A stretch of DNA of 64,000 bases, taken from sequence record PZ452591.1; one strand, 5' to 3'. Source of the DNA: a phage. The notes below the pieces were generated by a model. That model saw only the letters and a list, made by a program, of their open reading frames with translations, had not been told where the DNA came from and did no database searches. The position numbers and the translations under genes are program-made. Below, piece after piece: positions 25,824 through 36,624 of this stretch (position 1 is its first letter; each line of letters opens with the position of its first letter).

Positions 25824-28808
25824 ATGGCTACTTTAAAACAAATACAATTTAAAAGAAGCAAAACTGCAGGTCAACTTCCTGCTGCTTCAGTATTAGCCGA
25901 AGGTGAATTGGCTATTAATTTAAAAGATAAAACAATTTTCACAAAAGATGACTCAGGCAATGTTATAGAATTAGGTTTAAAATATGGAGGAACAATTGAT
26001 GGTTCTTTAACTGTTAATGGAAATATAATTGGAAATTTAACAGGTAACGCTGCAACTGCAACGAAATTAAAAACAGCACGAAAAATTAATGGTATATCCT
26101 TTGATGGGTCAAAAGATATCACGCTAACTCCATCTGACATAAATGTCAATAGCACAACGTTTATAAAAAATAATGGCGAATTACCTGTTGATGCTAATTT
26201 AGATACGTATGGGCCTGTTGAAGAATATCTTGGAGTTTGGTCGAAAGCAACTTCAACCAACGCTCAACCAGCAAATAAATTTCCAGAAGAAAATGCTGTA
26301 GGTGTGCTAGAAGTATTTGTGGCCGGTCAATTTGCTGGTACTCAGAGATATACAACTAGATACGGAAATGTTTATATTCGTTCCTTGACTGCTACATGGA
26401 ACGGAGTAAATGGTCCGTGGAGTGTGTGGCGAAATATTCAATCCGGTACTCGTCCACTGTCAACAACAATTGATCTTAATGATCTAGGAGGCGCTGAACA
26501 CTTTGGTTTGTGGCGAAATAGTTCAAATTCCATTGCTACCTTTGACAGAAATTTCCCAGAAGAGGGGTCGTCAGCTCAAGGTCTTTTGGAAGTATATGAA
26601 GGTGGAAACTATTCTCGTACACAAAGATATACAACCAGATTTGGTGTTGTATATACTCGTTGTCTTGCTGCCGCGTGGGATGCTTCCGCGCCTAAATGGG
26701 GACCGTGGCAACAAGTCGGTAATGTCACACCAGCGACTTTCTATGACGGAGATCTGAATGATTTTAAAACCCCTGGGTTATATAATATTTTAGGCACTGA
26801 TGCCGTTATTAACTGTCCTACAGGTGAAGGTTTGCCGACTGTTATTGTTGGTTTGCTGGAAGTTAAACAACGTGCTTCTGGCGGTGCTATTTTCCAAAAA
26901 TTTACTACTGCCGGAACGGGTGCAACTACTCGCGATCGTATTTTTGAGCGTGCATATACTGGTGGTGTGTGGGGTGCATGGAACGAAGTATATACATCTT
27001 ACTCTCTGCCAATTACTTTAGGTATGGGTGGTATTAAAACTCAATTAGCGGAGCTAGATTGGCAAACATTTGATTTTGTTCCTGGTAGTATGTTTAGCGT
27101 TCCTTTGAACAAAATAAAGAACATGCCAGCTAATATGAATTGGGGCACGATTGACGGAAACTTAATTATGTTTTCTGTTGGTCCTAGCGAGCACACCAGC
27201 ACAGGACGTACTGTTCAGGTTTGGCGTGGAACTGTATCCCAGACAAACTATCGTTATTTTGTCGTTCGTGTGTTCGGTAATTCTGGAAATAGAACTTGCA
27301 CAGTTCGCCGTGTTGTTCTTGAAGACGGATCACATACTTGGACTGCTAAACAAGATTTTAATGGCGCAGTTAACTTCGGTGCTCCTACCAATTTTAACTC
27401 TACTGTTAACCTTAATAACACTACCACATTTAAAACAGAAGTTAAATTTCGCTCATTGAATGCATTCCGTATGTATGGCGGAAAATTTGGTACATTTTTA
27501 CGTAATGATGGAGAGAGTCTTTATATTCTTTCCACCGACGAAGATGATCAAGATGGAAACTTTAATACAAATAGACCTTTCCGTTATGAATTAAGAACTG
27601 GTGATGTTACTTTGGGTGGTGCTAGTGGTGCTAACGTTTTAAAATTAAAACGTGATTCTCTCACCGCATTTTTTGGCGGTGATATTAACATTAAAGGCAC
27701 GATGACTTTTGACGCCGGACGTTTAGGATCACGAGATTATTTTAAATTTAACCATTGGGGTGATAGTAATAATGCGCGTGATAACATTATTCAGTTAGAA
27801 GACAGCAAAGGCGCTCATTTTTCCACTGAACGTACTTTAGCGACTGGTGCAATTAAGACTAAATTTTTTGGTGAAATTGAATCCGATGGTAAATTGGTTA
27901 TTAAACGTCCGGGTGATTCTATTGTATTATCAACAACTGCTAGTAATTCTTTGCATATTCGTGGTGACATAGACGGGACTGGTAACTGGTATATTGGTAA
28001 GGGTGGTGCTGATAATGGATTAGCGTTATATAGTTATGCTACTAATGCTGGTGTATACATTACAAACGCAGGAGATATCACGCTAAGTCCAAAAGGCGTC
28101 GAAATGGCCCATGTCAATAACGTTCGATTATATGTTCATGGTGAACGTTGGACTGCTAGTCAACCAGGTGATTGGGGTAGTCAGTGGCAAGTGGAAGCGC
28201 CAATATTCGTCGATCATGGTTATGTTTCACAGGATTGTTATTATCCAATTATTAAAGGAAGAAGTGTAATCACCAATCAAGGGTTTGTAACTGCCGTCGA
28301 TCTTGGTATTCGTCGTGTCAATAACAATTGGGGACAAGCAATTATTCGTGTTGGATCTGCGGAGGCATCGCCAGCGGCTGGACACCCTAACGCGGTATTT
28401 GAATTTCATTACGACGGTACTTTCTATTCTCCTGGTAATGGTAACTTTAACGATGTGTATATTCGTTCCGATGGTCGTCTTAAGATTAATAAAAAAGAGC
28501 TAGAAAACGGAGCACTTGAAAAAGTATGCCGACTGAAAGTTTATACATACGATAAGGTTAAGTCTATTAAAGATCGTAGTGTTATTAAACGTGAAGTTGG
28601 TATTATTGCTCAGGATCTTGAAAAAGAATTACCGGAAGCTGTGTCTAAAGTTGAAGTTGATGGATCTGATGTTCTGACAATTTCTAACTCTGCTGTGAAT
28701 GCTCTTTTAATTAAGGCTATTCAGGAAATGAGTGAAGAAATTAAAGAATTGAAAACGCCTCTCTTTACTAAAATTGCTCGCAAAATTAGTAAATATTTTA
28801 AATTCTAA
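25824..28808 (+). CDS. 37: long tail fiber distal subunit gp37, 994 aa, with C-terminal intramolecular chaperone-like domain
   Basis: ATG at 25824; conserved N-terminus; C-terminal about 110 aa resembles a tail-fiber/endosialidase-type self-cleaving chaperone domain. Confidence 0.9.
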
Positions 28809-28814
28809 CAACAA

Positions 28815-28832
28815 GGGGGAAATGCCCCCTTT
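28815..28832 (+). terminator. hairpin GGGGG-AAAUG-CCCCC with short U-run after gene 37
   Basis: 5-bp G/C stem directly after the gene 37 stop. Confidence 0.45.
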
Positions 28833-28844
28833 GGAGTATAAATT

Positions 28845-29636
28845 ATGGCAGTAGTTGGAGTTCCTGGCTGGATTGGAAGTTCAGCCGCAAATGAAACAGG
28901 ACAACGCTGGATGAGTCAAGCGGCTGGTCAATTAAGATTGGGTGTTCCTTGCTGGATGAGTCAATTTGCAGGTCGCTCACGAGAAATTATTCACACGCTT
29001 GGAGCAGACCATAACTTCAATGGTCAATGGTTCCGAGATAGATGTTTTGAGGCAGGTAGTGCACCTATAGTGTTTAATATTACAGGTGATTTAGTATCAT
29101 ATTCTAAAGATGTTCCTTTATTCTTCATGTACGGAGATACACCAAATGAATATGTTCAGTTAAATATACATGGCGTAACGATGTATGGTCGTGGAGGTAA
29201 TGGTGGTAGCAATAGTCCTGGCTCAGCTGGGGGTCATTGTATTCAAAATAATATTGGTGGGAGACTAAGAATTAATAATGGCGGAGCTATTGCTGGCGGC
29301 GGTGGCGGCGGTGGCGGCGGCTACTGGAATGCCGGTATAACGAGATATAGATCTGTTGTTGGTGGCGGTGGCGGACGTCCATTTGGGGCGGCTGGCGGGT
29401 ATTCTGGAGGATCAGCTTCTACCGCGGGCACTTTGACTGGGGCGGGCATTGGTTCTAAACCGGGAAATGCGATTTATGGTGGAAACGGAGGAAATGTGGG
29501 ATCTGCTGGTGGAGCTTGTGGCGGAATCTCAGGCTCTCGTTATGCTCGTTATGGTGGCGGCGCTGCTGGTTATGCTGTCATAGGGTCCGCTCCAACATGG
29601 CAAAATGTTGGAGCAATATATGGTCCAAGAGTATAA
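28845..29636 (+). CDS. 38: tail fiber tip adhesin gp38 (T2/T6-type, glycine-rich motifs), 263 aa
   Basis: ATG at 28845; several Gly-rich blocks ([59 protein letters not shown]) as in T2-type gp38 adhesins. Confidence 0.85.
29295..29321 (+). repeat. (GGC/GGT)9 trinucleotide tract encoding Gly9 inside gene 38
   Basis: ggcggcggtggcggcggtggcggcggc read directly from the sequence. Confidence 0.9.
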
Positions 29637-29666: not shown

Positions 29667-30323
29667 ATGGCAGCACCTAGAATATCATTTTCGCCCTCTG
29701 ATATTCTATTTGGTGTTCTAGATCGCTTGTTCAAAGATAATGCTACCGGGAAAGTTCTTGCTTCCCGGGTAGCTGTCGTAATTCTTTTGTTTATAATGGC
29801 GATTGTATGGTATAGGGGAGATAGTTTCTTTGAGTACTATAAGCAATCAAAGTATGAAACATACAGCGAAATTATTGAAAAGGAAAGAAATGCACGCTTT
29901 GAATCTGTCGCCCTGGAACAACTCCAGATAGTTCATATATCATCTGAGGCAGACTTTAGTGCGGTGTATTCTTTCCGCCCTAAAAACTTAAACTATTTTG
30001 TTGATATTATAGCATATGAAGGAAGATTACCTTCAACAATAACTGAAAAATCACTTGGAGGATATCCTGTTGATAAAACTATGGATGAATACACAGTTCA
30101 TTTAAATGGACGTCATTATTATTCCAACTCAAAATTTGCTTTTTTACCAACTAAAAAGCCTACTCCCGAAATAAACTACATGTACAGTTGTCCATATTTT
30201 AATTTGGATAATATCTATGCTGGAACGATAACCATGTACTGGTATAGAAATGATCATATAAGTAATGACCGCCTTGAATCAATATGTGCTCAGGCGGCCA
30301 GAATATTAGGAAGGGCTAAATAA
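29667..30323 (+). CDS. t: holin T, 218 aa
   Basis: ATG at 29667; single N-terminal transmembrane segment and large periplasmic domain; matches recalled T4 T. Confidence 0.9.
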   Translation: MAAPRISFSPSDILFGVLDRLFKDNATGKVLASRVAVVILLFIMAIVWYRGDSFFEYYKQSKYETYSEIIEKERNARFESVALEQLQIVHISSEADFSAVYSFRPKNLNYFVDIIAYEGRLPSTITEKSLGGYPVDKTMDEYTVHLNGRHYYSNSKFAFLPTKKPTPEINYMYSCPYFNLDNIYAGTITMYWYRNDHISNDRLESICAQAARILGRAK

Positions 30324-32415: not shown

Positions 32416-33051
32416 TCACAGTTCAGATGCTACAGCGATTACTGCTTCAATGTTTTCTGCTGAGCGTTTAATGTCAAGATACACATTACCGTTTTTAGCG
32501 ATTTTACATGACATTCCGATATCAGTAAATTTCTGAATATGATGTTCCATCATTTTGTATCCAAAAATTCGCATATTTCCATTATTGTTAATTTCAAAAT
32601 TACGAATTCCGTGAGTACGTTTTTCTAAAATAGCGAGATAGTTACTGCGGTAAGTTTCAACCTTTTTAAGAACAAATCCATTTTCATCTAAAAGTTTTAA
32701 CATGAGGTCTTTATCTTCTTCCATATCAGAAGTAATCTCACGAGCTTTACGAGTTGCTCGTTTTTTCAGAAGTTCCGGAGCATTTTCCTGTGCGTATAAA
32801 GTTGCTGCGTTTGAAATAATATCCTGGGCTTCACCTGTAATGATTAAACCATCACCAGATTTCTCCACCAGGCCTTTTTTAATCAATACCCCAATATTAC
32901 TATTAACTACTGCGTTACCTAAATCTGGATGCACCTCACGAACTTCTGCAGCTGTAATGAAATCTTTCTTAGCAATAGTAATTAAAATCGCAGCAGTTTT
33001 TTCATTCAGAACATCGTTAGAAGCTTTGATGATGTAAGTTACTTTAGACAT
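32416..33051 (-). CDS. motA: middle-transcription activator MotA, 211 aa
   Basis: ATG at 33049-33051; matches recalled T4 MotA. Confidence 0.9.
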   Translation of the reverse strand: MSKVTYIIKASNDVLNEKTAAILITIAKKDFITAAEVREVHPDLGNAVVNSNIGVLIKKGLVEKSGDGLIITGEAQDIISNAATLYAQENAPELLKKRATRKAREITSDMEEDKDLMLKLLDENGFVLKKVETYRSNYLAILEKRTHGIRNFEINNNGNMRIFGYKMMEHHIQKFTDIGMSCKIAKNGNVYLDIKRSAENIEAVIAVASEL

Positions 33052-33092
33052 TTTCTAATCTCCGTAATTCTGTATCAGTAGTTGATAGTTGT

Positions 33093-33122
33093 ATAGTACC
33101 ACAGTATGCTTTGGTTGTAAAC
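33093..33122 (-). promoter_or_regulatory. early promoter cassette upstream of motA
   Basis: minus strand GTTTAC at 33117-33122, 18-bp spacer, extended -10 TGG-TACTAT at 33093-33101. Confidence 0.55.
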
Positions 33123-33146
33123 CGTTTTGTGAAAAAATTTTTAAAT

Positions 33147-36378: not shown

Positions 36379-36406
36379 TTTCTGTTCCTCCGTAGTTGAT
36401 AGTTGT

Positions 36407-36436
36407 ATAGTACCACAGAGGAACAGTCTTGTAAAC
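36407..36436 (-). promoter_or_regulatory. early promoter cassette
   Basis: GTTTAC at 36431-36436, 18-bp spacer, TGG-TACTAT; recurring motif. Confidence 0.5.
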
Positions 36437-36624
36437 AACTTTTTTTTTAAAAATATTCGTAATAAATGTGAATACCAACTACTACCGCTGAAACTTGCAC
36501 AACCCACCACGCACAAGCAATAAGTACAGAATTCAAAATTTTCATAATAACCTCATCACAAAAGTAAATGTTAAACAAATTACTGGAATACTAATTAACC
36601 AAACAAAACACCACCACAATGAAC

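Follow-up and report, generated by a model that had tools for sequence, protein, structure and literature searches.

Gene 38 of the phage sequence record PZ452591.1 contains an uninterrupted run of nine glycine codons, and the question raised by this locus is whether the run serves the structure of the encoded adhesin alone or whether its repetitive DNA also provides a site at which the gene is rearranged. The whole stretch of 64,000 nucleotides that was analyzed is referred to as the window, and all positions are those of this stretch. The run is very probably a structural tract that doubles as a crossover site for a specificity cassette, with in-frame slippage and unequal exchange as further consequences of the same DNA. 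The coordinates of the features are collected in Table 1.

The open reading frame that contains the run was identified as gene 38 using profile and structure searches. In the Pfam test (PF05268 / PF21721), the GP38 family was matched at 3.7e-68 (230.1 bits) and Gp38_N at 4.3e-20 (71.9 bits), each against a cut-off of 25. Sequence-level matches in the PDB were obtained for gp38 of PP01 (9v85, 2.8e-78, residues 38-263) and for gp38 of S16 (6f45, 1.1e-48, residues 5-260). The fold is settled by homology to these two solved gp38 structures, and the protein is predicted to consist of an N-terminal gp37-attachment domain, a beta-helix, and a C-terminal polyglycine-sandwich specificity domain. The gp38 of the window is 100% identical to that of Enterobacteria phage Mi (AET36511.1). 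The closest DNA match for gene 38 is phage M1 at 97.7%, and the 12 kb around the gene are 95-96.5% identical to many Tequatrovirus genomes. The gene order g37 - g38 - t is that of a T-even genome, and gp38 is predicted to cap the tip of gp37. Dependence of Mi gp38 on OmpA, and to a lesser extent on LPS, has been reported (Trojet 2011), and the gp38 proteins of S16 and PP01 use OmpC.

The surroundings of gene 38 were also inspected. The Peptidase_S74 domain (intramolecular chaperone) of gp37 is located at 28467-28643, corresponding to residues 882-940, and fits a T2-type fiber that is processed and then capped by gp38. A GC-rich hairpin, GGGGGAAATGCCCCC, is found at 28816-28844, directly after the g37 stop codon. 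It is followed, right before the g38 start codon, by TATAAATT, which resembles a T4 late promoter. No open reading frame of at least 60 aa is present on the opposite strand under gene 38. Two near-identical elements that resemble T4-type early promoters (GTTTACA, spacer, GTGGTACTATACAACTATCAACTAC) appear on the minus strand at 33079-33140 and 36393-36450, upstream of the 211-aa open reading frame at 32416-33051 and of another small gene, respectively. The repeated TAGTTGTA rows in the tandem-repeat list are due to these two elements. No tRNA genes and no Rfam families at the gathering threshold were found in the whole 64 kb.

Table 1. Positions of features at and around gene 38 in the window
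Feature	Position	Strand	Basis
Gene 37, distal long-tail-fiber subunit, 994 aa, C-terminal chaperone domain	25824..28808	+	Gp34_trimer, Peptidase_S74
Gene 38, receptor-recognizing tail-fiber adhesin, 263 aa	28845..29636	+	ORF, Pfam, PDB matches
Reported tract (GGY)9, end of glycine-rich motif 2, left crossover zone of the cassette	29295..29321	+	S16 alignment, site patterns
Hypervariable loop between the Gly runs, 13 residues (HVS2 of Trojet 2011, loop-B of PP01 gp38)	29322..29360	+	42% nt identity to KEP10/T6-type
Receptor-specificity cassette, all distal loops, ~230 nt	29322..29552	+	Shared with RB49-like Krischvirus g38
Arg-Tyr (AGATAT-type) micro-repeat in the loop	29343..29354	+	Window AGATAT AGATCT
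Second Gly run, start of GGGGGRPFG motif, putative unequal-exchange partner of Gly9	29361..29375	+	Sequence, duplication/deletion junctions
9-nt tandem duplication CTCGTTATG x2, SRYARYG	29536..29553	+	Perfect repeat, last variable loop
GGT GGC GGC GCT GCT GGT (GGGAAG), last glycine-rich motif, right crossover zone	29553..29570	+	Site patterns
Holin gene t, downstream neighbor	29667..30323	+	Phage_holin_T 4e-117

The 27 nt at 29295-29321 read GGC GGC GGT GGC GGC GGT GGC GGC GGC, in frame with the open reading frame at 28845-29636, and these nine GGY codons encode Gly151-Gly159. The second run, GGT GGC GGT GGC GGA at 29361-29375, encodes Gly173-177. Tandem Repeats Finder gives 83% matches for the period-3 reading of the tract and 100% matches for the period-9 reading (TGGCGGCGG x3.0, 29294-29320). 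The tract is thus perfect as a 9-nt repeat but imperfect as a triplet repeat. A previous sequence-only reading of this DNA had described a perfect 27-nt triplet repeat encoding Gly9 inside the adhesin gene 38, with a shorter GGT/GGC run nearby. The position, the nine glycines, and the second run are as described, and the assignment to gene 38 is confirmed by the two Pfam families and the gp37 and t neighbors, but the perfect unit is 9 nt rather than the triplet. The (GGN)9 pattern occurs once in the 64 kb and in 0/100 dinucleotide-preserving shuffles. Apart from Gly9 and Gly5, the window open reading frames of at least 150 aa contain no run of five or more identical residues. GGC accounts for 7/9 of the codons in the tract, compared with 14.4% of the 868 glycine codons in the other open reading frames, and the choice of glycine codons in the tract is nonrandom.

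In the alignment with 6f45, Gly151-159 corresponds to residues 151-GGGGGGGG-158 of S16 gp38. This segment of S16 is named helix 3; it is the long polyglycine-II helix at the center of a "polyglycine sandwich" of three layers, in which the backbone hydrogen-bond network is saturated and from which the variable loops project (Dunne 2018). The gp38 of PP01 has the same fold, and its loop-B (Q161-V170), which is needed for adsorption, follows the Gly run. Based on this homology, the tract in all likelihood encodes the nine-glycine central polyglycine-II helix of gp38, and the main reason for the tract would be structural, which would explain the requirement for glycine at every position. This principal role was left unmentioned in the sequence-only reading, where slippage and exchange were given. 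Tight packing of the polyglycine-II lattice would leave no room for side chains, and the Gly run would for this reason be kept in all relatives while the outgoing loops vary.

The lengths of the two runs were determined in 102 parsed homologue clusters at 90% identity. The first run contains 9 glycines in 50 clusters, 8 in 38, 7 in 7, and 6 in 2, and its length tracks the type of loop after the run. The second run contains 5 glycines in 97/102 clusters. Five glycine-rich motifs (GRM1-5) and four hypervariable segments (HVS1-4) were defined in gp38 by Trojet (2011), and deletions of GRM2-4 and HVS1-3 were found to be nonviable in T6 (Trojet 2011).

The DNA of gene 38 was compared with the KEP10/T6-type allele and with a Krischvirus allele. 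Relative to KEP10/T6-type g38, the nucleotide identity is 99-100% over nt 1-450, 89% in the tract (differences at wobble positions only), 42% in the loop, 56% over the 168 nt past the loop, and 97.5% over the last 81 nt. Relative to Krischvirus g38, the identity in 30-nt bins is 20-73% up to 29291, 90-100% over 29292-29561 (93-100% in the cassette bins), and ~60% thereafter. The bin that holds the tract is at 90%, compared with 46-73% for the preceding bins, and the motif is conserved at the level of DNA. The flanks of the Krischvirus g38 contig (L032) are 99.3% identical to Krischvirus RB49. In the RB49-like contigs (L032 1501-2274 and L035 1501-2280), g38 lies away from g37 and the holin gene, among small function-unassigned genes, as reported for RB49, and nonetheless carries cassettes common to Tequatrovirus phages.

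A site-pattern test was conducted with four genes: the window, KEP10, and two Krischvirus loci (P0043 and P0093), of which one carries a KEP10-type cassette and the other is the RB49-like gene of L032. Before 29295, 137/138 informative sites are backbone-type and group the window with the Tequatrovirus backbone. Mixed signals appear inside the tract. All 37 of the 37 informative sites at 29322-29553 are cassette-type and group the window with the RB49-like Krischvirus gene, and 21/21 after 29575 are again backbone-type. The left switch occurs between 29291 and 29321, and the last cassette-type and first backbone-type sites on the right are at 29561 and 29571, respectively. The left crossover is therefore placed in 29292-29320 and the right crossover in 29562-29570, and both mosaic breakpoints fall inside glycine motifs. 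At least three cassette types were each found on two backbones. When a third cassette type was used as the megablast query, the final base of the tract was the end point of most of the sampled matches. Judged from these alignments, the Mi-type allele of the window is most probably a chimera in which a T6-like backbone gives way to a different cassette at the tract. Selection on viable junctions could contribute as much to the sharpness of the boundary as a recombinogenic character of the DNA.

The unit that moves is the whole specificity cassette. No convincing case of single-loop reassortment was found among 103 parsed homologues, in which the loops co-vary as one cassette. An apparent combination of a T6-type loop 1 with a Mi-type loop 2 in the first segment clustering was rejected on inspection as an artifact of greedy clustering. 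The movement of whole cassettes agrees with the finding that 0/14 selected chimeras contained an internal exchange (Trojet 2011). Shorter repeats are also found within the cassette. The AGATAT unit is present in one copy in UAB_60, in two copies in the window (the second mutated to AGATCT, Arg-Ser), and in three copies in M1. The 9-nt duplication at 29536-29553 adjoins the right crossover block, and a single copy (SRYG) is present in M1, UAB_60, Manna, and the Krischvirus allele. The indels that distinguish the window from M1 and UAB_60 are located at 29343-29354 and 29536-29553, outside the Gly run.

Rearrangements between the Gly9 and Gly5 runs were found in natural isolates. PYps47T carries a tandem duplication of the loop together with six glycines (54 nt), and ZN18 has a comparable duplication of 51 nt in which the joint consists of five glycines. 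The codons at the duplication junctions consist of the 5' part of the Gly5 run fused to the 3' part of the Gly9 run. The two junctions differ, and the duplications are independent. A megablast search with the PYps47T junction was uninformative; overlapping pieces were joined in nonduplicated genes. Three assemblies contain the reciprocal product, in which the loop is deleted and the runs are joined as Gly4, Gly6, and Gly7. The loop-deleted genes are located in metagenomic or genome assemblies (L038 1001-1651, L039 1001-1717, and L040 1001-1585). In L038 and L040, the N-terminal part of the gene is also disrupted by a frameshift or stop codon, and these two genes may be nonfunctional. The gene of L039 looks intact, although the equivalent deletion is reported as nonviable in T6.

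Copy-number differences in the tract were found between closely related phages. The Gly12 run of PYps14T consists of GGCGGCGGT x3 plus GGCGGCGGA, whereas the Gly9 run of its sister PYps15T consists of GGCGGCGGT x2. No substitutions separate the two phages over ~1.4 kb of g38 and flanks, and the only differences are one 9-nt unit and one 3-nt indel. The same Gly12 allele is present in AV121, from Danish pig waste, with five substitutions. PYps32T has gained 9 nt and carries one Gly-to-Val change, and one metagenomic allele has lost 9 nt. Runs of 10, 8, 7, and 6 glycines were also found with the loop otherwise unaltered; among the cluster members, the Mi-type loop is combined with Gly10, and loops of other types with Gly8 and Gly7.

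The frequency of such variants was estimated from a sample that comprised the matches listed and ~125 cluster members. Exact Gly12 runs are present in 2/128 phage records covering the query, among the matches listed. Some 4-5 of the ~125 sampled cluster members vary in the length of the run, and ~97% of the sampled relatives with the same loop keep nine glycines. Pattern scans of IMG/VR and GTDB for tract-length variants returned three viral contigs, all with Gly9. A further match, in a Cloacimonadota MAG, was discarded as a chance match unrelated to gp38. Slippage is real but rare, and the tract is therefore not a fast-switching locus.

The wobble positions of the tract were also compared, and 12 haplotypes were counted among 15 Gly9 genes. 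In close pairs, 13/90 tract wobble positions differ, compared with 10/1408 synonymous positions upstream, a ratio of ~20-fold; the pairs are nonindependent, so the p-value of this test is inflated. The hairpin predicted for the G-rich strand (mismatched GGC, -9.4 kcal/mol) is no better than the shuffled controls (z = -1.56), and hairpin-driven slippage is therefore unsupported. PYps55T (L029 6849-7658) contains a 9-nt duplication (Gly-Gly-Gln) in the first glycine-rich motif, which reads RGGQGGQGGW compared with RGGQGGW in a close relative; other glycine blocks therefore slip too. Indels in the gp38 of the PYps phages were noted previously, without a mechanism being assigned (Hammerl et al. 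2022).

The hosts of the variant phages were tabulated. Five isolates carry an expanded run or a duplicated loop, and four of these were isolated on Yersinia pseudotuberculosis: PYps14T (L024), PYps32T (L017), PYps47T (L018), and ZN18 (L003/L022). The fifth is AV121 (L041). Yersinia phages account for only ~10/173 of the matching records in the sample census, and this bias hints that run and loop variants are selected on Y. pseudotuberculosis. Published host ranges of the PYps phages differ only modestly and are confounded by other changes (Hammerl et al. 2022).

These results agree with much of what the sequence-only reading had proposed for the tract. Slipped-strand change was anticipated there and is borne out, although rarely, by PYps14T and PYps15T, AV121, PYps32T, and the Gly6-Gly10 variants; the absence of length variation in related isolates, which would have spoken against that proposal, is contradicted by the Gly12 and Gly9 sisters. 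Homologous exchange at glycine-rich blocks was also anticipated, and it is seen in the four-gene switch within the tract and in the duplication and deletion joints of Gly9 and Gly5. A comparison of breakpoints in related phages had been suggested as the check, and the breakpoints are located in the Gly9 tract and the block at 29553-29570, not elsewhere. The expected shuffling of variable segments applies to the cassette as a whole and not to individual segments, which are linked.

The possibility was considered that the tract is purely structural. According to this explanation, the polyglycine-II helix needs glycine, the breakpoints mark the border between a conserved and a diversifying domain, and the DNA is subject to neither raised slippage nor raised exchange. 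The vast majority of relatives do keep the Gly9 length, T6 mutants that lack glycine-rich motifs or hypervariable segments are nonviable, and the hairpin potential is nonsignificant. However, the cassette is 93-100% identical, silent sites included, beside flanks of 20-73% across two genera, which diversifying selection cannot yield. Neither the 9-nt difference between PYps14T and PYps15T with zero substitutions, nor two independent duplications with junctions inside the runs, nor wobble sites in the tract that diverge ~20-fold faster than silent sites upstream would be expected from structure alone, and this explanation is considered unlikely. That the length variants and mosaics are sequencing or assembly errors in a GC-rich repeat is highly improbable. 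Two laboratories in different countries each obtained an isolate genome with the Gly12 run, the duplications in PYps47T (Germany) and ZN18 have different junctions, and every change is in frame. Of the three contigs found to carry P0043, at least two contain the Krischvirus cassette, and Gly9 and Gly5 probably have too little sequence in common for a 31-mer assembly graph to collapse. These observations outweigh the facts that single short contigs from metagenomes are the source of some variants (P0101) and that L038 and L040 carry further defects.

A programmed contingency locus would be a 9-nt tract selected as a switch, with the length of the helix changed by whole turns and the loop repositioned for shifts in host range. 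The perfect 9-nt periodicity, the overuse of GGC relative to the genome, the four occurrences of +9 or -9 nt changes, the isolation of 4/5 expansion or duplication phages on Y. pseudotuberculosis, and the persistence of the Gly12 allele in two countries are all compatible with such a switch. It is nevertheless quite improbable: variants are rare, changes of +3, -3, and -6 nt show that whole-turn steps are not exclusive, the estimated chance of the observed wobble periodicity reaches only ~0.04, and the published differences in host range are modest and confounded. A polyglycine-II helix contains three residues per turn, and one 9-nt unit would correspond to one such turn. The related proposal that slippage adds or removes whole turns of the core helix, with the lattice register kept and the receptor loop pushed outward, as a reversible in-frame tuning for hosts such as Yersinia, is likewise improbable.

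The preferred explanation is a structural tract that also acts as the crossover site of the cassette. The tract would be an island of DNA identity between otherwise very different g38 genes because it must stay (GGY)n. Given such islands, homologous recombination could cross over in the tract and in the last Gly/Ala block, and the exchange would transfer the ~230-nt loop cassette, which determines the choice of receptor, from phage to phage and even across genera. The same repetitiveness would permit in-frame slippage, commonly by one 9-nt unit or three glycines, and unequal exchange with the nearby Gly5 run, which would duplicate or delete the loop between the runs. Purifying selection on the length of the helix would remove most of these variants.

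The structural and recombination roles of the glycine motifs were published between 1987 and 2018, and the chimeric nature of Mi gp38, with a T6-like HVS1 and novel remaining HVSs, was described by Trojet (2011). The glycine-rich motifs have been proposed as recombination hotspots (Tetart 1998; Trojet 2011). The observation made in the sequence-only reading is correct and its interpretation survives, and both restate published knowledge of gp38. The additions made here are the placement of both junctions at the level of single bases, the cross-genus (Krischvirus) copy of the Mi-type cassette, the natural variants in Gly-run and loop copy number, and the remark on the 9-nt unit and the helical turn. 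The current understanding of the gp38 system is unchanged by these findings. Gp38 is the main host-range determinant of the T2/T6-type phages and a target for the engineering of therapeutic phages. Cassette junctions placed to within 10-30 bases in glycine blocks provide practical splice points for swaps of specificity, including swaps between genera. The alleles with Gly12, a duplicated loop, or a deleted loop are natural examples of the changes that the polyglycine core undergoes in sequenced phages.

The locus can be compared with several known systems. As in the simple-sequence contingency loci of bacteria, a short tandem repeat is located in a gene for surface recognition and differs in copy number between near-identical strains. 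In contrast to those loci, the changes in gp38 are all in frame, rare, and without on/off switching, and the repeat is imposed by the structure of the protein. Host-range duplication mutants of T4 gene 37 were reportedly selected on Y. pseudotuberculosis. In those mutants, as in gp38, short conserved repeats flank a receptor-binding segment and mediate its tandem duplication (Tetart 1996), and the gp38 loop duplications of PYps47T and ZN18 were also found in phages isolated on Y. pseudotuberculosis. The two systems differ in that the duplications described here affect gp38 rather than the tip of gp37, involve another flanking motif, and are natural isolates known from their sequences. Compared with the polyglycine sandwich of S16 and PP01 (PDB 6F45 and 9V85), the homology extends over the full length, and the receptor-binding face is built from the loops that separate the glycine-rich motifs. 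Helix 3 contains eight glycines in S16 and nine in the window, the loops differ, and the fold of the Mi-type protein is predicted here from sequence only. The closest system is that of the glycine-rich motifs and hypervariable segments of T2/T6-type gp38 (Montag 1987; Tetart 1998; Trojet 2011). The gene family is the same, the tract is the Gly run of GRM2 and is followed by HVS2 and GRM3, the crossovers likewise fall in glycine-rich motifs, and nothing essential differs.
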